Shown here: in pieces, positions 1-31,910 of the stretch
Position numbering within the stretch: the first letter of the stretch is position 1
Layout: the number at the start of each line of letters is the position of its first letter
Source of the DNA: Candidatus Methylomirabilota bacterium
GTDB taxonomy: Bacteria; Methylomirabilota; Methylomirabilia; Methylomirabilales; 2-02-FULL-66-22
DNA: 32,138 nucleotides
Assembly (NCBI GenBank): GCA_016209725.1
Contig: JACQVO010000116.1
Span: forward strand, 1-32,138
Direction: 5' to 3'
Position numbers and translations under genes: made by a program
Notes under the pieces: model-generated
What the model was told of the DNA's origin: nothing
The model's database searches: none
Seen by the model: the letters and a program-made list of their open reading frames with translations, nothing else

Positions 1-150
1 ATCCAGGAGTTGCTGGGCCACGCGCATCTGCGCACGACGCAGCGCTACACCCACGTCGGGCTGGACAAGGTGCTGGAAGTCTATGACCGTGCCCACCCGA
101 GAGCCCGGTCGGGTGGCAGGCGCCCCAGCCCGGCGCCGAGGGAGCCATGA
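1..150 (+). CDS. xerC: Tyrosine recombinase XerC/XerD family, C-terminal end (5' part outside the window)
   Basis: Frame 1 reads [33 protein letters not shown]... to TGA 148-150. LLGH..L.TTQ.YTHV is the His...Tyr catalytic box of tyrosine recombinases. The stop overlaps the hslV ATG (ATGA), matching the known xerC/codV-hslV-hslU synteny. Confidence 0.8.
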
Positions 151-740
151 GAACACCCGGAGAGCTCCACCAGCCTGATGGCCAGGGGCATCCGGCACCG
201 GACCCGGGGCCCGTCCTGCGAAGCACAACCATCCTGTCCGTCCGGCACCGGGGACAGGCGGCCATCGCCGGCGATGGACAGGTGTCCTTCGGCGAGGTGG
301 TCATGAAACACACCGCGCGGAAGGTCCGGCGCATGTGCAACGACCAAGTCATCGCGGGGTTCGCCGGCGCGGCGGCGGATGCTTTCGCCCTCTTCGCGAA
401 GTTCGAGGCGAAACTGGAAGAGTTCAACGGCAACCTGCCCCGGGCCGCCGTGGAACTGGCCAAGGACTGGCGGATGGACCGCGCCCTGCGCCGACTGGAG
501 GCCCTGCTGGCCGTGGTGGACCGGGAGCACTCCTTGATCATCTCGGGGACCGGCGATGTGATCGAGCCGGACGATGGGATCATCGGGATCGGCTCCGGCG
601 GTGGGTACGCGGCCGCGGCCGCCCGCGCCCTGGTGAAACACTCGACCCTGTCGGCGCGGGAGATCACGGCGGAGGCGATGCGCATCGCCGCCTCGCTCTG
701 TGTGTACACCAACGACCAGATCACGATCGAGGAGCTGTAA
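147..740 (+). CDS. hslV: ATP-dependent protease subunit HslV (ClpQ)
   Basis: Track ORF 147..740. It contains [20 protein letters not shown] (N-terminal Thr nucleophile block) and GIGSGGGYA. The Thr codon lies at 225-227, 26 codons downstream of the only canonical start (see findings). Confidence 0.9.
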
Positions 741-742
741 GC

Positions 743-1069
743 GTGGCTGAAGTCAGGGCAGGCCTTCCTGAGAGCCTGGCCAAGGACGCGACCTTCCTGT
801 TCCCGGAGATGGACGTTGGCGAGCTTGATGTCCACGAGGACTGGAGGTACCTGCTTGGACGAGTGCTGGAATACGGCACCCTGGAGTCCGTGCGGTGGGC
901 GATGGACACCTACGGCCGGGAAAGAATCCGCGAGTTTATCCGAACGCGCGGGCTCCGGGTGCTGTCGAGAAAAACGGTGAACTACTGGGCGCTTCTGCTG
1001 GACCTCCACGACGAGGAATGCATCCAGAGATTCTTGACGGGCCCCAGAAATCCCTTCTGGCCCAACTAG
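743..1069 (+). CDS. Small helical protein, putative antitoxin/partner of the downstream AbiEii-type nucleotidyltransferase
   Basis: Same frame as track ORF 335..1069, but only the part after the hslV stop is plausible. GTG 743 is preceded by GAGGAG (729-734, 8-nt spacer); an alternative ATG is at 809. The product is 108 aa with balanced composition. WRYLLGRVLEYGTLESVRWAMDTYGRERIREFI...RKTVNYWALLL resembles, from memory, the DUF6922-type proteins usually found upstream of AbiEii-like genes. The 3' end overlaps the next CDS by 52 nt. Confidence 0.55.
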   Translation: MAEVRAGLPESLAKDATFLFPEMDVGELDVHEDWRYLLGRVLEYGTLESVRWAMDTYGRERIREFIRTRGLRVLSRKTVNYWALLLDLHDEECIQRFLTGPRNPFWPN

Positions 1070-1644
1070 AGCGCGGGGGGATTCCATCGGCCGTGTATTT
1101 GGCCGGGGGAACTGGCCTGGCTCTGCACCTCGGCCATCGGAGGTCCGTGGATCTCGACTTCTTCTCCTCGGAAGTATTCGAGGCCGAGGAATTGCTGACC
1201 GTTCTGCGACAGATTGGGGAGTTTCAGGTTCGTCGGAACGATCCGGGAACGCTGACGGCACGAGTCGAGGGGATTGAGGTGAGCTTCATTCGATACCTGT
1301 ATCCGATGCTCGATTCGCCGACCAAGCCGGAGTTTGCGCCGCCGATTGCTGGGCTCCGGGACATTGCGTGCATGAAGCTCTCGGCCATCATGGGTCGGGG
1401 GTCCAGACGCGATTTCGTGGACCTGTATGCGGTATGCCGGCAAGGGCACGGGCTGGGGGAAGTCTTCGGCTGGTTTCAGCAGAAGTACCATGGGATCACA
1501 TACGACCTGTACCACCTCGCCAGGAGCCTGGTCTATTTTCTGGATGCGGAAGAGGAGCGGATGCCGGTCATGCTCTGGCCCTGTCGCTGGGACGAGGTGA
1601 AGGCGTTCTTCACCGCCGAGTCCCGCCGCGTGTTCAGCGCCTAG
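1018..1644 (+). CDS. Nucleotidyltransferase, AbiEii/AbiGii toxin family (DUF1814-like), short form
   Basis: Internal ATG of track ORF 895..1644; the upstream part is R/G/P-rich shadow of the previous gene. The motif YLAGGTGLALHLGHRRSVDLDFFS is characteristic of AbiEii-type NTases. Product 208 aa. Confidence 0.8.
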   Translation: MHPEILDGPQKSLLAQLERGGIPSAVYLAGGTGLALHLGHRRSVDLDFFSSEVFEAEELLTVLRQIGEFQVRRNDPGTLTARVEGIEVSFIRYLYPMLDSPTKPEFAPPIAGLRDIACMKLSAIMGRGSRRDFVDLYAVCRQGHGLGEVFGWFQQKYHGITYDLYHLARSLVYFLDAEEERMPVMLWPCRWDEVKAFFTAESRRVFSA

Positions 1645-1701
1645 CTCCGTGGCCGGTTGTCGGTTGTCCGTTTTCCATTTTCAATTGAGGTGTAACCCGA
1701 C

Positions 1702-3045
1702 ATGGATCGTCTGACTCCCCGCCAGATCGTGGCGGAGCTCGATAAATACATCATCGGCCAGCACGACGCGAAGCGCGCCGTGGCCATCGCCCTCCGGAAT
1801 CGCTGGCGCCGGCAGAAGCTTCCCGCGGAGCTGCGGGACGAGGTCGCGCCGAAGAACATCATCATGATCGGCCCGACCGGTGTGGGCAAGACCGAGATCG
1901 CGCGCCGGCTGGCCCGGCTGGCCGAGGCCCCCTTCATCAAGGTGGAGGCCTCCAAGTACACCGAGGTCGGCTACGTGGGCCGGGACGTCGAGTCCATGAT
2001 CCGGGATCTGGTGGAGCTGGCGGTGAACATGGTCCGCGGCGAGAAGACCCGCCGGGTGGAGGAACGGGCGCGCGAGTTGGCGGAGGAACGCCTGCTGGAC
2101 CTTCTGCTGCCGTCGTCGCGGGTGGGGGCCTTCGGCCAGACGGTGGCGCCGGAGAGCGGCACCGCCCATGAGACCCGGGAGAAACTCCGGCAGCGGCTGC
2201 GGGAGGGCGCCCTGGATGACCGCACGGTGGAGGTGGATGTCGCCAATCGCGGCCTGCCCATGGTCGAGGTCCTCGGCGGGCAGGGCATGGAGGAGCTCCA
2301 GGAGAATCTTAAGGAGATGTTGGGGAACATCCTGCCCCAACGGACCAAGCGCCGCAAGGTGAAAATCAAGGAGGCGCACCGCATCCTGATGCAGGAGGAG
2401 GCGGACAAGCTGGTGGAGAAGGAGGAGGTGGTCAGCGAGGCCATTGCCCGCGTGGAGAATTCGGGGATCGTGTTCCTGGACGAGGTGGACAAGATCGCCG
2501 GACGCGAGCGGGCTCACGGCCCAGACGTGTCCCGGGAAGGGGTGCAGCGGGACCTGCTGCCCATCGTGGAGGGCTGCACGGTCAACACCAAGTACGGGCT
2601 GGTCCGGACGGACCACATTCTTTTCATCGCCGCCGGGGCCTTCCACGTCTCGAAGCCCTCGGACCTGATCCCGGAGATGCAGGGCCGGTTTCCCCTCCGG
2701 GTCGAACTCCCTAGCCTGACCCGCGAGGACTTCGAGCGCAACCTTACCGAGCCGGAGAAAGCCCTGACCAAGCAGTACACCGCCCTGCTGGCCACGGAAG
2801 GCGTGGGCCTGGAGTTCCTGCGAGACGCCATCCAGGAAATCGCCGCCATCGCCACCGCGGTCAACCAGGCCACCGAGAACATCGGTGCACGCCGCCTGTA
2901 TACCATCATGGAGCGGCTACTGGACGAGATCTCTTTCGAGGCCCCCCACATGGCAGGGGTCAAGGTGGCCATCGACGCCGAGCACGTGCGGCGGAAGCTG
3001 GCGAGCATCGTGAAGGACCAGGACCTCAGCCGCTACATCTTGTAG
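1702..3045 (+). CDS. hslU: ATP-dependent protease ATPase subunit HslU (ClpY)
   Basis: 447 aa. N-terminal [32 protein letters not shown], Walker [16 protein letters not shown], and C-terminal ...DLSRYIL. GAGGTG lies 10 nt upstream of the ATG. Confidence 0.95.
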
Positions 3046-3098
3046 CGTCAGGGCCTGGGGCGATCCCCCTGGGCTGGCAGGACGGCTGGGGGCCGGGG

Positions 3099-3989
3099 AT
3101 GCTGGACTGGGGACAGGCTATGGCTCCGGATCCGAGCAGGGCAGAGATCATCATCGGGGCGTTGCCCTTCATCCGCGCCTTCAGCGGGAAGACGGTGGTG
3201 GTCAAGTACGGGGGCAACGCCATGCTGGACCCCCAGCTCACCACGGCGGTCATCCAGGACCTCATCCTGATGCGGCTGGTCGGAATGCAGCCGGTGGTGG
3301 TCCACGGGGGTGGACCACAGATCGATCAGGCCATGCAGGCTTCCGGGTCGCAGCCGCGATTCGTCCAGGGCCTGCGCGTCACCGACGCCGATACCATGCG
3401 CACCGTCGAGCGGGTCCTGGTGGGGGAGATCAACCAGGAGATCGTCGCCTGGATCCAGCGTCTGGGAGGCGCCGCCATCGGCCTCTCGGGAAAGGACGGG
3501 GGATTGATCCAGGCCCGGAAGGCCGGCCCGGCCAGGGCCCCCGATGGGCAGATGGTGGACCTGGGCCTGGTGGGCGACGTGGCCAGGGTGGAACCCCGGC
3601 CCATCCGGGCCCTCCAGGACGCGGGATACATCCCGGTGGTGGCGCCCACGGCCGGCGATGAAACGGGCGCCACCTACAACATCAATGCCGACCTGGTGGC
3701 GGGAGAAATGGCCGCGGCCCTGGTGGCCGAGAAGCTGGTGCTCCTGACCGACACCGACGGAATTCTGGATCGCCAGGGGCGGCTGCTCTCCACCCTGTCC
3801 CGGCAGGAGGTGGAGCGTCTGATGGCGGACGGGACCATCAGCCGGGGGATGTTGCCGAAGGTGCAGGCGTGTCTCACCGCCCTGAAGGCCGGGGTGCGCA
3901 AGACCCACATCATCAACGGAACCCGGCAGCACGCGCTCATCGAGGAGCTTCTGACCCCCGAGGGAGTGGGGACGGAGATCGTGGCATAA
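3099..3989 (+). CDS. argB: Acetylglutamate kinase
   Basis: KTVVVKYGGNAM and VVVHGGGPQI motifs of the amino-acid kinase family, in arg gene context. An alternative start ATG is at 3120. Confidence 0.9.
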   Translation: MLDWGQAMAPDPSRAEIIIGALPFIRAFSGKTVVVKYGGNAMLDPQLTTAVIQDLILMRLVGMQPVVVHGGGPQIDQAMQASGSQPRFVQGLRVTDADTMRTVERVLVGEINQEIVAWIQRLGGAAIGLSGKDGGLIQARKAGPARAPDGQMVDLGLVGDVARVEPRPIRALQDAGYIPVVAPTAGDETGATYNINADLVAGEMAAALVAEKLVLLTDTDGILDRQGRLLSTLSRQEVERLMADGTISRGMLPKVQACLTALKAGVRKTHIINGTRQHALIEELLTPEGVGTEIVA

Positions 3990-3992
3990 CCG

Positions 3993-4095
3993 GCGATCAG
4001 GCAGCCTGGCAACCAGGCAAGTGGGCGATCAGGCAATCAGGCACCCAGGGAACTCGGAGCCCCTGAGTGCCGAGTCGCCGGATTGCCTGATTGCC
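3993..4095. repeat. Nested hairpin built from 8-nt tandem units (GCGATCAG/GGCAATCA) directly after the argB stop
   Basis: gcgatcaggca at 3993-4003 and ggcgatcaggcaatcaggcac at 4024-4044. ggcaatcaggca (4032-4043) pairs perfectly with tgcctgattgcc (4084-4095). The loop holds a second inverted repeat, actcgg...ccgagt. Confidence 0.7.
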
Positions 4096-4134
4096 AGTCG
4101 TGAGAGCTGAAGGTCAAGGACTTGTACTGAACGG

Positions 4135-5346
4135 ATGAGGTGGGATGCTATGACCACACAGGAGCTTCTTGCGGCGTCGGCGAAGTACCTGGCCAACACC
4201 TACGCGCGCTTCCCCATCGTCCTGGAGAGGGGCCAGGGGGTGCGCCTGTGGGATTCCGACGGGAAGGAGTACCTGGACTTCGTCGGCGGCATCGCCGTGG
4301 ACGCCCTGGGGCATTGCCACCCGCGGATGGTCGAGGCCATCCGGACGCAGGCCGAGCGCCTCATCCACGTGAGCAACCTGTACCACATCGAGCCGCAGAT
4401 CCGATTGGCCCAATTGCTGTGCGAGCACTCCTTCGCCGACCGGGCGTTCTTCTGCAACAGCGGGGCCGAGGCCAACGAGGCCGCCATCAAGCTGGCGCGC
4501 AAGCACGCCAAGGACCACTGGAGCACGGACCGGTTCGAGATCATCGTCATGCGCCACTCGTTTCATGGGCGCACGCTGGCCACGGTGACGGCCACGGGGA
4601 ACGAGAAGTACTGGCACGGCTTCGAACCGCTGATGCCCGGCTTCAAGCACGTCCCGTACAACGACCTGAAGGCGGTGGAGCGGGCCATGGACTCCCGCAC
4701 CTGCGCGATCCTGGTGGAGCCCGTGCAGGGCGAGGGGGGAGTAAACGTCCCCGGCGACGAGTATCTCCCCGGGCTGCGGCGACTGTGCGATCAGGCCGGA
4801 GTCCTCCTGATCCTGGACGAGGTCCAGTCGGGCATCGGACGCACGGGGAAGCTGTTCGCCTACCAGCACTGGGGAGTGACGCCGGACATCATGACCCTGG
4901 CCAAGGCGCTGGCGGGGGGCATTCCCATGGGGGCCATGCTGGCCAAGGAGAGCGTGGCGGCAAGCTTCGTCCCCGGCTCCCACGCCTCGACCTTCGGTGG
5001 GACCCCGTTCGTCTCGGCCGTGGCCCACGCGGTGCTGAGCACCATCATCCAGGAGGATCTGCCGGGCCATGCCGCCCGCGTGGGGAAGTACCTCCTGGAC
5101 CGGTTGGTCGCGCTGCAGGAGAAGCATCGGGTCGTGACCACGGTGCGCGGCAGGGGGCTGATCCTGGGCATGGAGGTTTCGGTCCCCGCCCGGACCATCG
5201 TCTCCGGGTGCATGGAACGGGGGCTCCTGGTCCTGACCGCGGGCGACAACGTGGTGCGGTTCGTCCCGCCCCTCATCGTCACCGAGACGGACGTGGATCG
5301 GGCCGTCCGCATCGTAGAGGAAGTCCTGAACGGACTTCCTCATTGA
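4135..5346 (+). CDS. argD: Acetylornithine aminotransferase (class III PLP aminotransferase)
   Basis: LILDEVQSGIGRTGK and TLAKALAGG (PLP Lys region), in arg context. The probable true start is ATG 4150 (MTTQELL...). Confidence 0.9.
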   Translation: MRWDAMTTQELLAASAKYLANTYARFPIVLERGQGVRLWDSDGKEYLDFVGGIAVDALGHCHPRMVEAIRTQAERLIHVSNLYHIEPQIRLAQLLCEHSFADRAFFCNSGAEANEAAIKLARKHAKDHWSTDRFEIIVMRHSFHGRTLATVTATGNEKYWHGFEPLMPGFKHVPYNDLKAVERAMDSRTCAILVEPVQGEGGVNVPGDEYLPGLRRLCDQAGVLLILDEVQSGIGRTGKLFAYQHWGVTPDIMTLAKALAGGIPMGAMLAKESVAASFVPGSHASTFGGTPFVSAVAHAVLSTIIQEDLPGHAARVGKYLLDRLVALQEKHRVVTTVRGRGLILGMEVSVPARTIVSGCMERGLLVLTAGDNVVRFVPPLIVTETDVDRAVRIVEEVLNGLPH

Positions 5347-5347
5347 A

Positions 5348-6301
5348 ATGGAGCTCGTGATGAATCGCCATCTGGTCACGCTGGAGGATGTCACGCAGGC
5401 CGACGTCGAGGCGCTCTTCGACCTGGCGGCGTCCCTCAAGGCCAAGCAGCGGCAGGGCATCGCCCACCCGCTGCTCCAGGGGAAGACCCTGGCCATGGTC
5501 TTCGAGAAGCCGTCCCTGCGCACGCGGGTGACCTTCGAGGCGGGGATGACCCAACTGGGCGGACATGCCATCTATCTGGCGCCGGCCGACATCCGCCTGG
5601 GCCAGCGGGAGACGGTGCAGGATGCGGCCCGCAACCTGGAGCAGTGGGTGGACGGGATCGTCGCCCGCACCTTCAGCCACCAGATGGTGGAGCGCCTGGC
5701 CCTGTACTCCCAGATCCCCGTCATCAACGGCCTCAGCGACAGCCACCATCCCGTGCAGATCCTGTGCGACCTGTTCACCCTGTGGGAGAAGAGGGGGTCG
5801 CTGGCCGGCCGGCGGGTGACCTTCCTCGGGGATGGGAACAACGTCTGCCACTCCTGGCTTCAGGGGGCGGCCGCGCTGGGCCTGAGCTTCACGCTGGCCT
5901 GCCCGCCGGCATACGAGCCCGACCCGACGATCCTGGGCCGCGCCCAGGAACGCGCCAAAGCGAGCGGCGCCCGGCTGGAAGTGACCCACGACCCGCGGGC
6001 GGCGGTCCGGGAGGCGGATGTCCTCTACACCGACGTCTGGACCAGCATGGGCCAGGAAGAGGACCACGCGCAGCGTCTCCGCGACTTCCAGGGATTTCAG
6101 CTCGACCGCGCCCTCGTGGAGCAGGCCCGCCCGGACGTCCTGGTGATGCACTGCCTGCCGGCCCACCGGGGGGAGGAGATCACCGACGAGGTCATGGACG
6201 GCCCGCGGAGCATCATCTTCGACCAGGCGGAGAACCGCCTCCACATGCAGAAGGCGCTCCTGGTCAGACTCCTGGGACCCGGCGTCAGGGTGGTGAGCTA
6301 G
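5348..6301 (+). CDS. argF: Ornithine carbamoyltransferase
   Basis: Motifs SLRTRVTFE, HPVQILCDL, DVWTSMG and HCLPAHRGEE. An alternative start ATG is at 5360. Confidence 0.9.
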   Translation: MELVMNRHLVTLEDVTQADVEALFDLAASLKAKQRQGIAHPLLQGKTLAMVFEKPSLRTRVTFEAGMTQLGGHAIYLAPADIRLGQRETVQDAARNLEQWVDGIVARTFSHQMVERLALYSQIPVINGLSDSHHPVQILCDLFTLWEKRGSLAGRRVTFLGDGNNVCHSWLQGAAALGLSFTLACPPAYEPDPTILGRAQERAKASGARLEVTHDPRAAVREADVLYTDVWTSMGQEEDHAQRLRDFQGFQLDRALVEQARPDVLVMHCLPAHRGEEITDEVMDGPRSIIFDQAENRLHMQKALLVRLLGPGVRVVS

Positions 6302-6330
6302 TGTGGTGACTCCCAAATTCCATTACAATT

Positions 6331-6395
6331 CCGTTCACCCTGAGAGCTTGTCGAAGGGTGCGAAATCCGGGCTTCGACAAGCTCAGCCCGAACGG
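6331..6395. repeat. REP/MITE-like palindromic element, copy 1
   Basis: ccgttcaccctgagagcttgtcgaaggg (6331-6358) is an imperfect inverted repeat of cttcgacaagctcagcccgaacgg (6372-6395). The first ~45 nt are near-identical to 31794-31836. It generates the spurious peptide FDKLSPNG. Confidence 0.75.
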
Positions 6396-6476
6396 GCTTC
6401 ATGTAAAGCCTTTTCTGAGTCAGTACACTAGACGTCAGCGAATTACCGCTCCGGGTTCAAAGCATTCGACTGTTCT

Positions 6477-6549
6477 ACCGTTCGGTAGTTCGGCACGTAC
6501 GAGGTTGGCGGAACGGCCGAACCGCCGAACCGCCGAACTGCTGAACGCC
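6477..6549. repeat. Composite hairpin: GTTCGG x2, GTAC centre, then (GCCGAACC) tandem array
   Basis: accgttcggtagttcggcacgtac...ggccgaaccgccgaaccgccgaactgctgaacgcc. It has 8-nt periodicity and an inverted orientation of the two halves. The architecture matches 23921-23990. Confidence 0.75.
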
Positions 6550-6566
6550 TTTCGTCAGGTTGGAGG

Positions 6567-7370
6567 GTGACGGTGCGACTGACGGATAAAGCGGCCATGG
6601 TGACGGGTGGAGGGGCCGGGATCGGCCGCGCCATTGTGCTGGCTATGGCGCGGGAGGGCGCCGACATCGTCATCGCCGACCTCCGGCGGGAGGCCGCCGA
6701 AGCCGTGGCCAGGGAGGCGCAGGACCTGGGCCGGAAGGCGGCGGCGATCCGGGTGGACGTCGCCCAGGAGACCCAGGTGCAGCAGGCCATCGCGGACGGC
6801 ATCCGGCAGTTCGGGCACATCGATATCCTGGTGAACAATGCCGGGGTGACCCCGGGACTGGGCCTGCCTTTCACGCGCCAGGAGGAAGCCGACTGGGATA
6901 CGGTGTTCGATATCAACGTGAAGTCAGTCTTCTTCGCGTGCAAGGCCATCGCCCCGCACTTCATGCAGCGGCGGTCCGGCAAGATCATCAACATCGCCTC
7001 CATTGCCGGGCCGCTGTCCAGCTTGACCATGCCGTCTTACAGCGTCTCCAAGATGGGGGTGATCACCTTCACCCGGATCGTGGCCAAAGAGCTGGCGGCG
7101 TCCAACGTCAACGTGAACGCCATCTGTCCGGGCCTCCTCTGGACGGACATGTGGAAGAACATCGGTGAGGTGATTCGGGAGACGAATCCGGCGTACCGGG
7201 ACCTCACCCCTCGGCAGATGTTCGAAAAGCGCGTGGAGGAGTGGATCCCCTTGAAGCGGGAGCAGACGCCGGAGGATATCGGGCACGCCGCCGTGTTCCT
7301 CGCCTCCGAGGAGGCGCGCAACATCACCGGCCAAGCCCTGATGGTGGACGGCGGGGTGGTGATGCAGTGA
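6567..7370 (+). CDS. Short-chain dehydrogenase/reductase (FabG-like oxidoreductase)
   Basis: GTG start, 267 aa. TGGGAGIGRA Rossmann motif, NNAG, and YSVSK (YxxxK). Confidence 0.85.
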   Translation: MTVRLTDKAAMVTGGGAGIGRAIVLAMAREGADIVIADLRREAAEAVAREAQDLGRKAAAIRVDVAQETQVQQAIADGIRQFGHIDILVNNAGVTPGLGLPFTRQEEADWDTVFDINVKSVFFACKAIAPHFMQRRSGKIINIASIAGPLSSLTMPSYSVSKMGVITFTRIVAKELAASNVNVNAICPGLLWTDMWKNIGEVIRETNPAYRDLTPRQMFEKRVEEWIPLKREQTPEDIGHAAVFLASEEARNITGQALMVDGGVVMQ

Positions 7371-7375
7371 GAGAC

Positions 7376-7404
7376 TGTTCGGCGGTTCGGCTGTTCGGCG
7401 GTTC
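7376..7404. repeat. (GTTCGGCG/GTTCGGCT) tandem array, inverse orientation of the 6515-6549 array
   Basis: ctgttcggcggttcggctgttcggcggttc starts 5 nt after the SDR stop. Its reverse complement shares gccgaaccgccgaac with the array 17 nt upstream of the SDR start. Confidence 0.75.
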
Positions 7405-7504
7405 ATGAGATAGCAAAGGGACAAGAGATCGGGTAGTAGTAATCTTACTGAGGATGAGTTGTCTGGTGCCTCATTCTCCGAGAAATTGAAGGAGGTGGTC
7501 CTCC

Positions 7505-7783
7505 ATGCCCCGCCTGCAGACTCCTGAGGGCGTCCGCATTGAAGTTCCGTTTGAGTCGCTTTCAGCGCAAGTTGCGAAGCTCCCTGTTGAGTCGCTTTCA
7601 GCGCTAGTTGCGAAGCTCCCTCAGGGGAAGAAGCTTCGCCTCTTCAAGGAGCTCATGGCTGAGCCTGCTATTGAGGATTGGGTGCTCGAAATGAATCCGC
7701 GTATCAGGAAAGAGATTCGTACTGCGCTGCGCGAAGAAGTGGAAGACTACCGGACATTTCGTCGGCGAGTCGTGGCAAGGTGA
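7505..7783 (+). CDS. Putative type II antitoxin (orphaned), 92 aa
   Basis: ATG is preceded by GAAGGAGGTGG. The stop overlaps the GTG of the RelE/ParE remnant (GTGA). The region is AT-richer than its surroundings. No confident family assignment. Confidence 0.5.
   Translation: MPRLQTPEGVRIEVPFESLSAQVAKLPVESLSALVAKLPQGKKLRLFKELMAEPAIEDWVLEMNPRIRKEIRTALREEVEDYRTFRRRVVAR
7551..7622 (+). repeat. 36-bp in-frame tandem duplication inside the antitoxin-like ORF
   Basis: ttgagtcgctttcagcgcaagttgcgaagctccctg (7551-7586) versus ttgagtcgctttcagcgctagttgcgaagctccctc (7587-7622), 2 mismatches. It encodes FESLSAQVAKLP/VESLSALVAKLP. Confidence 0.9.
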
Positions 7784-7951
7784 AACCATACCACGTTGAG
7801 GTCACGAAAGGGGGGCAGAAGCAGATATCGGAACTTTCTCCGAAGGACTTCCGGCGGATTGACCGATTATCGGATCATCTATCAAGTGAATGACGAGTCG
7901 GCAGTTGTGAAGGTGCTTCGGGTCATGCACAGGCGAGAGGTTTACCGGTAA
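7780..7951 (+). pseudogene. RelE/ParE-family toxin remnant (internal deletion plus frameshift)
   Basis: Frame 1 from GTG 7780 reads VKPYHVEVTKGGQKQISELSPKDFRRI, a typical RelE/ParE N-terminus. Frame 2 (7865-7951) reads [28 protein letters not shown], a typical C-terminus. The ~30 central residues are missing and the two parts are out of frame. Confidence 0.75.
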
Positions 7952-7992
7952 CGAATCTTCTCGAGGCCGCAGCCAGGGTGGGGGTTGGAGGA

Positions 7993-9207
7993 ATGGTGGG
8001 AAACATCAAGAAGATCGTGCTGGCGTACTCGGGCGGGCTGGACACGTCGGTCATCCTGCGGTGGCTGATCGAGACCTACCGGTGCGAGGTGGTGGCCTTC
8101 GTGGCCGACATCGGCCAGGGGGAAGAGGTCGGGCCGGTCCGGGAAAAGGCCCTGCGGACCGGGGCCAGCCAGTGCTACGTGGAGGACTTGCAGGACGAGT
8201 TCGTGCGGGACTTCGTCTTCCCCTGTCTCAAGGCGAACGCCCTGTACGAAGGGCGGTACCTCCTGGGGACCTCCATGGCCAGGCCCCTCATCGCCAAGGG
8301 GCAGATGGCCGTGGCGAAGAAAGAGCGCGCGGACGCCGTTTCCCACGGGGCCACCGGCAAGGGGAACGATCAAGTCCGATTCGAGTTGACCTATTACACC
8401 TTCGATCCCCATATCCAGATCATCGCCCCGTGGCGCGAGTGGAACTTCCGCTCGCGGACGGATCTGGTGGAGTACGCGAAGAAGCACGGGATCCCCACGC
8501 CGGTCACGGCGGAGCGTCCCTACAGCAGCGACCGGAATCTGTTCCACATCAGCTTCGAGGGGGGCATCCTGGAAGACCCCTGGGCCGAGCCCCCGGAGAA
8601 GATGTACGTCCTGTCGGTCTCGCCCGAACTGGCTCCCAACCGGGCGACCTGCGTGGAGATCGGTTTCGAGCGGGGGATCCCCGCGGCCGTGGATGGGGAG
8701 CGGATGGGCCCCGCCGCGCTACTGGCTCACCTCAACCGGCTGGGGGGCGAGAACGGGATCGGCCGGGTGGACATGGTAGAGAACCGCTATGTGGGGATGA
8801 AATCCCGCGGGGTGTACGAGACCCCGGGCGGCACCATCCTGCAGGCGGCGCACCGGGCGGTGGAGTCCATCACCATGGACCGCGAGGTGATGCATCTCAG
8901 GGATTCGCTCACCCCGCGCTTCGCGGAGCTGGTCTATTACGGGTACTGGTATTCGCCGGAGATGGAGCTGCTCCGGACGACCATCGACGAGTCCCAGAAG
9001 ATGGTGACGGGCACCGCCCGTCTCAAACTGTACAAGGGCAACTGCGACGTGGTGGGGCGCAAGTCCCCGGTGTCCCTCTACGACCCCGAGTTCGCGACCT
9101 TCGAGGCGGAGCAGGTGTACCAGCAATCGGACGCCACCGGGTTCATCCGGCTGAACGCCCTCCGCCTGCGAATCCGGGCCCTGACCCAGACGCGGCAGCA
9201 GGGTTGA
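7993..9207 (+). CDS. argG: Argininosuccinate synthase
   Basis: [15 protein letters not shown]-type ATP pyrophosphatase motif, with full-length similarity to ArgG. The track ORF starts at GTG 7978. ATG 7993 gives the usual N-terminal length, so the start is uncertain by 5 codons. Confidence 0.93.
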
Positions 9208-23920: not shown

Positions 23921-23990
23921 GTTCGGCTGTACGGCAGTTCGGCAGTACGACGGTACCGCCGAACGGTCGAACGGTCGAACCGCCGAACGC
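23921..23990. repeat. Composite hairpin GTTCGGC x2 / GTAC centre / (CGCCGAAC, GGTCGAAC) x4
   Basis: gttcggctgtacggcagttcggcagtacgacggtaccgccgaacggtcgaacggtcgaaccgccgaacgc fills the whole dapL-folB spacer. It belongs to the same family as 6477-6549. Confidence 0.8.
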
Positions 23991-28162: not shown

Positions 28163-28467
28163 ATGACACATGCCGTCTATCGGGTCGTTGGGTATGAAGT
28201 GGTCGGGCCGTCTACGCTGCGAGTGGAGTTCGACGACGACACGGCACAAGTGATGACTTCGGGCCGATACTGCGTGGCGAGTTGTATGGCCCGCTCCGGG
28301 ATGACCGCCTGTTCCGGCAGATCGTGATCGACCCGGAGGTCCACACGCTGGTTTGGCCGACGGGCGCTGACTTTGATCCGGCGATTCTCCACGATTGGTC
28401 GCGGTACGAGAGCGACATGCAGCGGCTGGCGCAGCAGTGGGCAACCGCCCAGACCAAGGCGTCGTAA
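28163..28467 (+). pseudogene. DUF2442-family gene with a 1-nt frameshift
   Basis: Frame 2 from ATG 28163 reads MTHAVYRVVGYEVVGPSTLRVEFDDDTAQVM and then runs to a stop at 28325-28327. Frame 1 continues DFGPILRGELYGPLRDDRLFRQIVIDPEVHTLVWPTGADFDPAILHDW... to 28467. The join lies at ~28250-28257 (caagtgatgacttc). Confidence 0.65.
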
Positions 28468-28997: not shown

Positions 28998-29193
28998 CAG
29001 ACTTATTCAACTTGTCTGCTGACCGTCTCCGTCAAGCGCTGCATCCTGGTGTGACGACTACCTGCGTCCACATGCCCGCTGTTTCTTCAAGACGCCTCAG
29101 AGATAGCCTCTTCCTGGATCCGTAACTGTCGCTCGGATTCACGGATTTCCTCCGAAGGCCTTTTCCCGCCGACGTTCCTCGCCGATTCAACCC

Positions 29194-29225
29194 AGAAAAG
29201 CAACCGGAATCAAAAGAAAAGCAAC
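29194..29225 (+). promoter_or_regulatory. Perfect 11-bp direct repeat AGAAAAGCAAC x2 (21-bp period) upstream of the orphan gene
   Basis: Copies at 29194-29204 and 29215-29225, with a degenerate third copy (gcgagcaaac) at 29231-29240. They sit in an AT-richer spacer ~120-150 nt upstream of ATG 29347. Confidence 0.35.
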
Positions 29226-29346
29226 GAGGGGCGAGCAAACCAGGTGAGGCGTGTTGTAGAAATAGCGCACCCGGTGCAGAGCCAGGCGGGACCCGGAGAG
29301 GGAAACCTGCCCCAGGGATGAGGCGCGTGTGAAGGAGGGTGCGGTC

Positions 29347-31506
29347 ATGGCTGAGACAAGACCCGCTGAGCAACTGCAGAAAGGAATTCACGGGCCCGAG
29401 AAGGAGCGAGTGCAGTTCAAGCAACTCCTCGCCGAAAACCCGAACTACTTCGGGAATCTCGCCGACAGCCCGTACAAGGTGGTGAAGAAGATCATCGGCA
29501 ATCCGACCTATGAGGAGCTGACCTGCGTTGGGTACAACCCGGACCTGGCCCAACTCGAGGCCCCCTTTCAGGTCAAGCTGCCGACCGGGTACGGCGGCGA
29601 CCTCTGCCATGCGGGCTCGACAGAGTACGTTCGATTCTTCCTGGATTACGGCTCCGGGTGGGTTGACCAGGGCGTGGCGGCGGTGAACGTCCACGACATC
29701 CCCAACGCGCTCGACTGCGCCAAGCACCCGGACAAGCCGCTGACCTACGTCGTGTCCCTGAAGATCAAACCCCAGGCCGAAACCTGCGCACACCCGGTCC
29801 TGCCCCGCGTGCGCGCGATTCTCTCGTGGCAGACCATGCCTCCGGCCGGCAATGCGGCCTGGCCGCCGATCTGGGGCAACGTGCTTACCCGGCACATCCA
29901 GATCAAGCCGCACGTGAAAAATGTCGTGGCCCTGATCGACGTCCTTGCCGCCAAGATCAAGGACAAGATCCCCCTGCCGCCGGAGTACGAGGTGATCAAG
30001 TATCACCCGATCCCGCTTCCGGACCCGCCTCCATACCAACTGGCCGATCTGGTCAAGCTCTATTCAGGAGGACAAGCCGCCAAAGCCGCCAAGGTCAGCG
30101 TCGAGCCCCATCGCTTCGGGTTGGCCGACGTTCACGCCACGCTCAGCTCGGGCGCCCTGACCCAGGAGGCGTTGTCGGCCAAGGCCGAGGAATGGAAGGC
30201 GGTCGGCCTCGACTGGGCGGCCGTCGTGGCCGCCCTGAACAACGTGAAAGCCGACGTCTCGTACGAGGAGGTGGAATGCCTGGGGCTGGACAACAACCTG
30301 GAGTGGCTGGCGGCCACCTTCCGCATCAAGCGGCCCACCGGGTACTCGGGCGATCTGTGTCACAACGGCAGCCAGGAGTATATCGCCTTCTGGGCGGATT
30401 GGGACGACACCTGCGAGTGGACCTATCTCGGAACCACGTCCGTCAACGTCCACGACATCAGCAGCATCCCGGCGGATGGGCTTGCCTACACCGCCCTGTT
30501 CCCGGTGGATCTCACGTTCCACCGGCGTCCCTGCCAAAAGCCCAAGATCGGTCGGGTACGGGCCGTCCTCTCCTGGGCCGTTCCCCCGTCCACGACGGAC
30601 CCGAACGCGCTCACGACCTGGGGCAACCGCCTCGACGCCCACGTCCAGATCAAGCCGGGGCCGACGATCGCGGGACCGACCGCCATCATCGGCATCCTCG
30701 GGGGGATCCCGATCAGCAAGATCAATCCGTTCACGGGATTGACCACCTTCGACGCGTTCTTCGCCCTCAACGGGCTGGCCCCGGATGCGCTCGGCCGACC
30801 CTGCCCGTTCGCGGGACGCGTCGTCCTGCAGGGTCCCTCGTTCCCGGGCTATCGGTACAAGGTCGAAGTCCACAAGGTGGGCGATCCCGGGCCGTGGACA
30901 CCCGTCACGACGACGATGACGCTGGTGGACTGGACGGGGACGATCTTCACCACCCGGGCGGCCGATCCCGGAACGCACCTCTTCAGTTTCCAGCCGTTCT
31001 GGCTGAATGTGGACAACGTGCTGGCCTGGTGGGATACGACCGGGGACGACCTGTGGGAGATCCGCTTGCAGCTCTACGACCTGGCCACGCCGGCGAACCC
31101 GGTGGGACCGCCGGCCAGTCACCTGATTCAGTTGGAGAACAGCGGGATCGCCGACGTCCGCATCCACATCGCCACCGGGGGAGACTGCAAGATGTTCCCC
31201 AAGGCGACGACCTTGACCGGGGCCTTTGTCGCCCGCGACCCGTACCTCGGCTCCTACAGCCTGGGCACCAGCCCGTTCGCCGCGCCGGCGGGACATCTGG
31301 TTCCCACCGGCGGGACGGCGCAGACCGCGCCGGCGCCTATGCTGCCGACCGCGCCCCCGCCCGGCGGTAACGCCTGGTCCCTGGACACGAACGGCATGGC
31401 GCCCTGCGGCTACGTGCTGGTCGTGACCGCGGTTGACCGAGCGATCGTGCACAGCGCGGCCGTAGGGCATTGGGCCTCCGCGTCGGTCGGCTTCTGCATC
31501 CAGTAA
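29347..31506 (+). CDS. Orphan 719-aa protein with two tandem ~133-aa Cys-bearing modules and a ~280-aa C-terminal domain
   Basis: ATG 29347 with AAGGAGG 9 nt upstream. The composition is balanced, whereas the overlapping frames are R/G/P-rich. The internal duplication spans nt 29509-29910 versus nt 30262-30657. There is no signal peptide or TM segment, and I recognise no family. Confidence 0.8.
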   Translation: MAETRPAEQLQKGIHGPEKERVQFKQLLAENPNYFGNLADSPYKVVKKIIGNPTYEELTCVGYNPDLAQLEAPFQVKLPTGYGGDLCHAGSTEYVRFFLDYGSGWVDQGVAAVNVHDIPNALDCAKHPDKPLTYVVSLKIKPQAETCAHPVLPRVRAILSWQTMPPAGNAAWPPIWGNVLTRHIQIKPHVKNVVALIDVLAAKIKDKIPLPPEYEVIKYHPIPLPDPPPYQLADLVKLYSGGQAAKAAKVSVEPHRFGLADVHATLSSGALTQEALSAKAEEWKAVGLDWAAVVAALNNVKADVSYEEVECLGLDNNLEWLAATFRIKRPTGYSGDLCHNGSQEYIAFWADWDDTCEWTYLGTTSVNVHDISSIPADGLAYTALFPVDLTFHRRPCQKPKIGRVRAVLSWAVPPSTTDPNALTTWGNRLDAHVQIKPGPTIAGPTAIIGILGGIPISKINPFTGLTTFDAFFALNGLAPDALGRPCPFAGRVVLQGPSFPGYRYKVEVHKVGDPGPWTPVTTTMTLVDWTGTIFTTRAADPGTHLFSFQPFWLNVDNVLAWWDTTGDDLWEIRLQLYDLATPANPVGPPASHLIQLENSGIADVRIHIATGGDCKMFPKATTLTGAFVARDPYLGSYSLGTSPFAAPAGHLVPTGGTAQTAPAPMLPTAPPPGGNAWSLDTNGMAPCGYVLVVTAVDRAIVHSAAVGHWASASVGFCIQ

Positions 31507-31544
31507 TCGCCTGGGTTCCACCTCAGTACGCCCCCAGGGACATG

Positions 31545-31586
31545 CGGCGGGTAACGGGACACTCCCGTTGCCCGCCGTGTGTTTCT
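31545..31586 (+). terminator. Rho-independent terminator of the orphan gene
   Basis: cggcgggtaacggg (31545-31558) pairs with cccgttgcccgccg (31564-31577), with one G-U wobble, and is followed by tgtgtttct. Confidence 0.65.
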
Positions 31587-31793: not shown

Positions 31794-31881
31794 CCGTTCA
31801 CCCTGAGCCTGTCGAAGGGTGAGAAATTCGGGCTTGGTTGCGAGTTCAGCCGAACGGCTTCGACAAGCTCAGCCTGAACGG
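31794..31881. repeat. REP/MITE-like palindromic element, copy 3
   Basis: ccgttcaccctgagcctgtcgaagggtgagaaattcgggctt...cttcgacaagctcagcctgaacgg is near-identical to copy 1 over the left arm. It generates the spurious peptides PFDRLRVNG and FDKLSLNG. Confidence 0.75.
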
Positions 31882-31910
31882 ATCCCGGGTGAACCCGGAT
31901 ATTGCAGTTC

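Follow-up and report, generated by a model that had tools for sequence, protein, structure and literature searches.

What is the 719-residue protein encoded near the end of contig JACQVO010000116.1 (assembly GCA_016209725.1) of a Candidatus Methylomirabilota bacterium, and on which side of the membrane does it act? The contig, which was analysed over its full length of 32,138 nt and is referred to as the window, carries the gene at positions 29347–31506 of the plus strand. The original prediction, made from the sequence, had depicted the product as an orphan composed of a duplicated four-cysteine module and an unknown C-terminal domain, devoid of recognisable motifs. Judging from its homologues, the protein belongs instead to a family that is large, unnamed and strongly conserved, with members of ~700–750 aa, and its duplicated module is, by homology through full-length relatives, a divergent and enlarged GEVED-type β-sandwich. 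As to its role, we tentatively favour, well short of certainty, a cysteine-stapled, non-enzymatic binding protein made of four sandwiches and located in the envelope or the extracellular space.

The gene is real and under purifying selection. The open reading frame (ORF) extends over positions 29329–31506 of the plus strand, where a GTG start would give 725 aa and the ATG at 29347 gives the 719 aa used here for numbering. When compared with a 93.6%-identical copy carried by a metagenome contig (L088), the ratio of non-synonymous to synonymous substitution rates (dN/dS) is 0.15 in the annotated frame and 0.33–2.9 in the remaining five; the annotated frame, being the lowest of the six, is thus the one under purifying selection, and the possibility raised earlier that another frame is the expressed one fails. 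The G+C content at third codon positions, 0.87, is like that of the neighbouring housekeeping genes of the window. The gene has its own ribosome-binding site, as originally predicted, and both the LLAENPNYFGN sequence of the N-terminus and the terminal ...VGFCIQ are present in the protein. The predicted absence of a signal peptide and of a transmembrane segment also holds, the top Kyte–Doolittle mean over 19 residues being 1.51 and the N-terminus hydrophilic. The coding features are as follows:

29347–31506, plus strand: coding sequence, 719 aa (77.5 kDa, pI 6.0, 12 Cys), with a dN/dS of 0.15 in that frame only
29332–29338, plus strand: Shine–Dalgarno sequence AAGGAGG, 8 nt ahead of the ATG at 29347, from direct reading of the sequence
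29401–29454, plus strand: N-terminal helix and family signature ER..F..LL..NPNYFGN, residues 19–36, from conservation and AlphaFold helices at 19–30
29482–29913, plus strand: module 1, residues 46–189, divergent GEVED-like β-sandwich with C60, C87, C124 and C147, ending in WGNVLTRHIQIKP
29914–30234, plus strand: predicted helical linker, residues 190–296, with conserved PIPLPDPPP and VEPHRFG motifs (AlphaFold helices at 193–300)
30235–30660, plus strand: module 2, residues 297–438, second GEVED-like β-sandwich with C311, C338, C356 and C396, ending in WGNRLDAHVQIKP
30661–31503, plus strand: C-terminal region, residues 439–719, two predicted immunoglobulin (Ig)/fibronectin type III (FN3)-like β-sandwiches (~485–597 and 601–719) with C486, C614, C687 and C717

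The term orphan does not withstand database searches. A search of 5.8 billion proteins retrieved >3,095 homologues at E≤0.001, mostly full length and 50–94% identical, and an exhaustive hidden Markov model search of 1.84 billion cluster representatives retrieved 1,419 clusters (50% identity) at E≤1e-3, among which 578 at E≤1e-30. The best match is 94% identical and the next one 72%, followed by hundreds at 50–61% over the full length; in the 5.8 billion protein search, these homologues bear no Pfam domain and are called 'hypothetical'. Homologues occur in 216 species of a one-genome-per-species data set, where the best match, 80% identical, is from NC10, and overall in >12 bacterial phyla plus Archaea. 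Carriers include NC10, Acidobacteriota (many), Rokubacteria, Deinococcota (Meiothermus), Chloroflexota, Cyanobacteria, Actinomycetota, Gemmatimonadota, Verrucomicrobiota, Proteobacteria and Brocadia, and, on the archaeal side, Nitrosocaldus, Bathyarchaeota and Hodarchaeota. A 43%-identical copy, unannotated in PLSDB, lies on the megaplasmid of Ralstonia solanacearum PSI07. Searches of Pfam, NCBIfam and PDB sequences with the window protein gave nothing significant, and profile-versus-PDB searches with either the whole family or the module gave chance-level matches only. DUF5560, the one Pfam entry to come up, was discarded (E=0.047, below threshold, and matched in one of the 63 sequences scanned).

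Across these 63 diverse members, the invariant polar residues are R21, E56, R256, E307 and Y504, the other invariant positions being Gly, Trp, Phe, Leu and Cys147, with no invariant His or Ser. The N-terminal signature varies hardly or not at all at R21, N31, N33, F35 and G36.

The proposed duplication of ~133 aa is firmly supported. Residues 46–188 align with residues 297–437 at 37% identity over 147 columns (E=3e-28), and the family profiles of modules 1 and 2 align with a probability of 100% (hhalign, E=2e-57, 138 columns); the segments 61–194 and 312–443 of the original prediction are the same ones numbered from the GTG start. The nature of the module emerges from the relatives of the protein. 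The Pfam family PF20009 (GEVED; gathering threshold, 24.4 bits) is not matched by the window protein, either at E≤1 over its full length or at E≤10 with isolated module 1, and is matched by 10 of the 63 diverse members (best E=3.3e-8) and by half of 16 isolated modules (8/16). In these two scans, every other family was matched by a handful of members at most. More specifically, module 1 of homologue P0174 (34.7 bits) and module 2 of homologue P0211 (26.9 bits) lie above the threshold, module 2 of homologue P0162 reaching 16.7 bits. The matching members align with the window protein over the full length, so that a literal FGEVED in P0174 stands where module 1 of the window protein reads WGNVLT. 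The last strands of the two window modules, WGNVLT and WGNRLD, lack the G-E-V-E-D motif, and relatives show the intermediates WGEVQE and WGNREE. The scores of the P0174 and P0211 modules and the FGEVED/WGNVLT correspondence thus identify the module, by homology, as a divergent GEVED-type sandwich, a motif that the original prediction had missed and that is seen through homologues. The definition of GEVED is based on region NR3 of CshA, an extracellular fibrillar adhesin of Streptococcus gordonii (Barringer et al. 2023, PMC10952558).

Cysteine columns were scored in 249 near-full-length sequences and their changes counted on a distance tree. The 12 cysteines of the window protein fall into three groups of four (60, 87, 124 and 147; 311, 338, 356 and 396; 486, 614, 687 and 717), all of them invariant or nearly so among close homologues, in keeping with the structural importance ascribed to them from the start. 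The idea that the four cysteines of each module are equivalently placed applies to three of them (60=311, 87=338 and 147=396), C124 and C356 being non-equivalent. As to the 'LCH' motif, described as invariant, its His is not conserved across the family.

Cysteines are lost in twos. C60 and C311 are both present in 225 of the 249 sequences, both absent in 19 and discordant in 5 (phi 0.88), and C124 and C356 are both present in 164, both absent in 79 and discordant in 6 (phi 0.95). On the distance tree, C60 requires 18 changes and C311 13, and their joint state only 18 versus 31 if they were independent, which amounts to ~13 independent coupled events. In sequences that have lost C60 and C311, various small or acidic residues occupy the two positions (S/G, A/A, E/E, S/H). 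C124 lies within an insertion loop of 8 residues, which is absent from sequences without C356. C87, C147, C338, C396, C614 and C687 are almost never lost, and C486 and C717 are present in 59% and 90% of the sequences, respectively. Note that a subfamily devoid of C124, C356 and C486 has three cysteines per unit (60/87/147, 311/338/396 and 614/687/717). Loss in twos, not in fours, favours two-cysteine links over Cys4 metal sites, and a single Cys4 metal site per module was rejected on this ground; a C486–C717 disulfide was likewise rejected, the two positions being uncoupled. Two of the putative two-cysteine links would join module 1 to module 2. There is no sign of enzymatic function, the conserved cysteines behaving as pairs and not as a lone nucleophile.

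A DxNxDGxF loop, which looks EF-hand-like (calcium-binding) to us, occurs in some family members (15/249 for loop 1 and 21/249 for loop 2) and never together with the C124–C356 pair. At the position of this loop, the subfamily of the window protein holds WDDTCEW, which contains C356.

The AlphaFold2 model of the whole chain, built with 35 homologues, has a predicted local distance difference test score (pLDDT) of 88.3 and a predicted template modelling score (pTM) of 0.83; modelled alone, the C-terminal region reaches a pLDDT of 95.2. Along the chain, the model displays a short N-terminal helix, a sandwich at residues 56–183, a helical linker at 193–300, a sandwich at 307–435 and two more sandwiches. 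The pLDDT of the linker is lower, 57–66, at residues 190–230, and P221–P227, V252 and R256 are conserved in it. The C-terminal ~280 aa, predicted to be β-rich, are all-β in the models; they do not represent third and fourth copies of the module, a possibility discarded with hhalign (E>0.2). Altogether, the architecture consists of the N-terminal NPNYFGN helix, two sandwiches assigned to the GEVED type with the helical linker between them, and two Ig/FN3-like sandwiches. Compared to the PDB with Foldseek, the C-terminal model gives generic tandem Ig/FN3/cadherin/surface-layer (S-layer) matches (best E=1.8e-5, template modelling score (TM-score) of at most 0.39), and the whole chain, compared to PDB and viral structures, gives generic Ig/FN3 strings only, with TM-scores of 0.09–0.18. 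The fold class is clear from the models, but with such low TM-scores a specific family cannot be assigned from the fold matches. The better of these matches are mostly to extracellular proteins (Ig, FN3, cadherin, macroglobulin, S-layer and adhesin proteins).

Further clues to location come from the relatives. In the clade of homologue P0158, 21 of 91 members have classic Sec signal peptides, and several more occur elsewhere, in both subfamilies, that of P0162 resembling a lipoprotein signal. Some relatives carry additional domains, namely an N-terminal PG_binding_1, an N-terminal ComEA-like HHH_3 or a C-terminal lamin-tail domain (LTD); one further N-terminal extension resembles, by eye only, a transthyretin-like domain. 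A conserved GFC(L/I) motif lies only a few residues from the C-terminus of family members, and no LPXTG or sorting domain is present. The added domains are typical constituents of proteins of the envelope or the extracellular space. Combined with the adhesin-type domain, with fold matches that are mostly to extracellular proteins and with cysteine pairs that behave like disulfides, they favour an action outside the cytoplasm.

The gene also seems to come with its own control elements:

29113–29346, plus strand: conserved upstream non-coding region, probably promoter and 5′ leader, travelling with the gene (93% homology to L088)
29194–29225, plus strand: two exact copies of AGAAAAGCAAC, 11 bp, at 29194 and 29215, 21 bp from start to start, both identical in L088
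31540–31586, plus strand: GC-rich hairpin (31540–31582, RNAfold) and, after it, GTGTGTTTCT; probably an intrinsic terminator, its U-tract being weak, kept in L088

DNA homology with L088 starts at 29113, i.e. 234 bp ahead of the ATG, spans the terminator hairpin and reaches the end of the L088 contig, so that gene and control region move, or are maintained, as a unit. Upstream of 29113, the sequences are unrelated (a HEAT fragment in the window, atpG in L088): the window copy is preceded by panBCD, a disrupted DUF2442 gene and the HEAT fragment, and the ~94%-identical copy follows atpBEFHAG. In L088 (positions 1–7561), the homologue lies 439 bp after atpG, in the usual place of atpD in the atpBEFHAG-D-C operon, and the contig ends there. 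The earlier view of an autonomous unit is borne out by this near-identical protein, which stands in a wholly different context with a shared upstream region and hairpin. The direct repeats noticed upstream of the gene are the two AGAAAAGCAAC copies, a candidate site for a regulator recognising direct repeats; in other phyla, the upstream regions of homologues yielded no copy of the motif. Neither a sigma-70 consensus nor an Rfam match was found in the upstream region. To call the terminator clean was generous: the GC hairpin is strong (−53.7 kcal/mol with RNAfold over a 94-nt stretch containing it), but the U-tract is weak and a simple pattern-based terminator scanner did not call the hairpin.

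The gene is monocistronic in every context examined (ten gene-called loci), and in 8 of these 10 loci it is preceded by a long non-coding flank of 325–670 bp. After clustering the flanking ORFs of 88 loci (87 fetched loci and the tail of the window) and reading the ten gene-called contexts, we found no conserved neighbour beyond one Acidobacteriaceae clade. In that clade (L022, L046, L051, L056 and ~20 other loci), a trio of genes lies 0.1–0.8 kb downstream of the homologue, and was not seen outside the clade among the 88 loci. Its first product is a small membrane protein of ~120 aa that looks DUF1360-like to us (..WR.THL...EDGP...CFYCLS.W..), the second has 81 aa and starts with MSCCGNGRR, and the third, of 569 aa, is taken from its sequence for a YkuD-type L,D-transpeptidase. 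The argG/argH genes near two acidobacterial copies were set aside as a housekeeping coincidence, not a conserved association. At locus L007 (3427–7560 and 13755–15191), the homologue is flanked on one side by a serine recombinase, an integrase fragment and an AAA_25 gene and on the other by an IS66 transposase, in a probable mobile region. In L084 (6131–8248), from a Vicinamibacteria metagenome-assembled genome, the homologue is split into ORFs 6131–6988 and 7055–8248, owing to a frameshift (pseudogene) or an assembly error. The suggestion of a horizontal acquisition is accepted in part: recent acquisition of the window copy is not shown, because its codon usage matches that of the host, whereas the patchy distribution at ~50% identity across phyla and domains points to horizontal transfer at the family level.

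How would such a protein work? Under our favoured reading, that of a stapled binding protein acting outside the cytoplasm, the setting would be oxidising and extracytoplasmic (the cell envelope, an extracellular matrix, or the medium after release) and the role one of binding or scaffolding. The two GEVED-like modules would pack against each other and be stapled by C60–C311 and C124–C356, as deduced from co-variation, the latter staple taking the position that the DxNxDGxF loop has in other members. Within-module pairs C87–C147 and C338–C396 and a last-domain pair C614–C687 are assumed, the near-invariance of these residues speaking neither for nor against them. The rigid core of four sandwiches may be a payload binding a conserved ligand, most plausibly a polymer or a surface, which the various lineages would address by different N-terminal devices: Sec or lipoprotein signals, peptidoglycan-binding domains, ComEA-like DNA-binding helix-hairpin-helix domains, and the extension that resembles a transthyretin-like domain by eye. 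The window copy carries none of these. Its expression would proceed from its own conserved 234-bp upstream region, with the 21-bp-spaced direct repeat, and end at its own hairpin.

Several observations weigh against this reading. Its main weakness is that the export route of the leaderless majority is left unexplained: a signal peptide, a transmembrane segment or a known secretion motif is absent from the window protein and from most family members, and no secretion system is encoded nearby in the ten gene-called contexts. Leaderless forms and forms with Sec signals are interleaved at 50–70% identity, which may reflect a genuinely variable location or a mainly cytoplasmic family. The anchor argument is weakened by PG_binding_1 fusions that also lack signal peptides, one of them assigned to an archaeon without peptidoglycan. 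Moreover, the disulfides are inferred from co-variation only, and the window protein's own modules reach no Pfam GEVED score. Finally, we know of no ligand, partner or phenotype for any family member.

A first alternative is a cytoplasmic protein whose cysteine pairs would be metal ligands (e.g. two-coordinate Cu(I)/Hg(II), or Zn shared with His/Asp) or redox-sensing thiols, the sandwiches then forming an intracellular scaffold or sensor. This alternative, which we regard as unlikely, agrees with the lack of a signal peptide or transmembrane segment in the window protein and ~80–95% of its relatives, with the odd number of three cysteines per unit in the subfamily without C124, C356 and C486, with the recurrence of an HD dipeptide (NVHDI) in both modules, and with the fact that C717 is usually present without C486 and uncoupled from it, so that at least one thiol is probably free. 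It is at odds with the loss of cysteines two at a time and not as a Cys4 set, with the replacement of C60 and C311 by residues that are not other ligand sets and with the lack of family-wide conservation of His88 and His116; a sizeable minority of close relatives have Sec signal peptides, and both the type of domain and the majority of the better fold matches belong to extracellular proteins.

A second alternative is a leaderless effector that would be freed by lysis or in vesicles and bind a conserved surface target on other cells; it could be a bacteriocin of the lectin-like type or a toxin directed at predators or eukaryotes. In its favour are the leaderless architecture of tandem binding-type β-sandwiches and the solitary gene, which has its own promoter and terminator and lies in unrelated surroundings even in copies that are 94% identical. 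The distribution is patchy, as after horizontal transfer, across phyla and onto the Ralstonia megaplasmid, and at one locus (L007) a recombinase, an integrase and an IS66 transposase adjoin the gene. However, bacteriocins and toxins usually evolve by diversification, whereas conservation is much stronger here, with 50–60% identity across phyla and a dN/dS of 0.15; immunity and lysis domains are absent, Pfam shows no toxin domain, PADLOC defence models gave 0 families at E≤1, and the protein has no pore-forming or enzymatic signature, all of which makes a released effector decidedly improbable. Leaderlessness is normal for virion proteins, and descent from a phage structural protein (a tail fibre or receptor-binding protein, either domesticated or left as a remnant) could be invoked on the basis of Foldseek matches to viral models of tail and FN3 proteins (E ~1e-8 to 1e-10) and of one PHROG 'tail protein' (E=0.03, residues 398–437). 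Yet the TM-scores of 0.09–0.18 denote generic Ig-string similarity, the PHROG match falls on the GEVED-like strand motif, tblastn found 0 matches in 50,697 phage genomes, phage genes flank no locus examined and the window copy follows a run of housekeeping genes; a phage origin is thus very hard to believe.

The remainder of the window is core chromosome, with hslVU, argBDF, argG, argH, lysA, dapA, dapB and panBCD. The frameshifted DUF2442 gene and the HEAT fragment reported beside the 719-aa gene were both found. The former, at 28163–28467, is a DUF2442-like gene split into two overlapping frames, in which 28163–28327 would be the N-terminal part; ORF 28282–28467 matches positions 40–71 of the 72-position DUF2442 Pfam profile (E=0.0016), which fits a frameshifted pseudogene. 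The MITE-like repeats (miniature inverted-repeat transposable elements) mentioned earlier were recovered as well: 31761–31835 matches 6298–6374 over ~75 nt with 77–90% identity, contains CCGTTCACCCTGAGC.TGTCGAAGGGTG, and has one copy 255 bp downstream of the gene. After that copy comes, by eye, an arm of partial complementarity, GGCTTCGACAAGCTCAGCCTGAACGG (~31857–31882), giving the look of a MITE- or repetitive extragenic palindromic (REP)-type intergenic hairpin element. Arrays of an 8-nt unit (GCCGAACC / GGTCGAAC) occur at 6500–6546, 7377–7404 and 23934–23988, the first two being inverted and flanking a short-chain dehydrogenase gene (6567–7370) and the third following an aminotransferase gene. 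Positions 7551–7621 hold a near-perfect (97%) tandem duplication of a 35-nt unit, TTGAGTCGCTTTCAGCGC.AGTTGCGAAGCTCCCT, in a lower-GC stretch between the dehydrogenase gene and argG.

For the window itself, the outcome is a correction: the protein is neither an orphan nor a lineage-specific invention. Beyond the window, a family of >1,000 clusters at 50% identity, with ~50% identity between phyla and domains of life, turns out to be without a full-length representative in Pfam, NCBIfam or the PDB. The cryptic GEVED domain ties it to adhesin biology and offers a handle to curators building a family model. The coexistence of leaderless and Sec-targeted orthologues with disulfide-like cysteine pairs raises a concrete and testable question on the site and mode of action, and culturable carriers exist (Ralstonia PSI07 and Allomeiothermus silvanus). 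That a strongly conserved bacterial–archaeal family would be horizontally spread, always encoded alone and stapled by inter-domain disulfides yet mostly leaderless is a combination that we consider doubtful; if true, it would imply either an unrecognised route for the export or release of a folded 77-kDa cysteine-linked protein, or one fold and function on both sides of the membrane. The protein is best viewed as an architecture that is widespread and previously undescribed, with a cryptic GEVED domain as its building block, and there is no evidence yet for a new mechanism.

Three known systems invite comparison. Macroglobulin-domain proteins (alpha-2-macroglobulin, complement C3/C5 and CD109), which are also strings of β-sandwiches, provide the top whole-chain Foldseek matches in the PDB (E ~3e-9), but the TM-scores are 0.11–0.15, no thioester, bait region or other defining domain is seen in the sequence or the model, no Pfam macroglobulin family is matched and there is no sequence similarity. 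Ig-string adhesins and S-layer proteins (the Ig domains of PrgB, 8beg; SbsB, 4aq1; Deinococcus radiodurans HPI, 8cka) resemble the window protein in being multi-domain and all-β (Foldseek E 1e-4 to 1e-8), and some members of our family carry signal peptides and cell-wall-binding domains; with TM-scores of at most 0.39, however, what is common is the generic fold, and the window protein is compact (four domains, pTM 0.83), with no long stalk, anchor or leader, and far more conserved in sequence than is usual in those proteins. In sequence, the likeness is to GEVED (PF20009) of CshA, a β-sandwich with a Pfam model of ~80 residues whose threshold is passed by module 1 or 2 of homologues, the last strand of each window module (WGNVLT.. 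/ WGNRLD..) sitting at the FGEVED position of P0174. The segments F.DYG.GW / WADWDDTCEW and RVRAILSW may correspond to the canonical W.DWN.DG.F and TRMRV of GEVED. Compared to GEVED, the window module is larger (~140 aa), with extra N-terminal strands and cysteines and with degenerate GEVED motif and DxNxDG loop. The window protein also differs from CshA by the absence of a signal peptide, stalk repeats and a wall anchor, and the domain occurs in it as a tandem pair with a helical linker instead of downstream of the NR2 adhesive domain.

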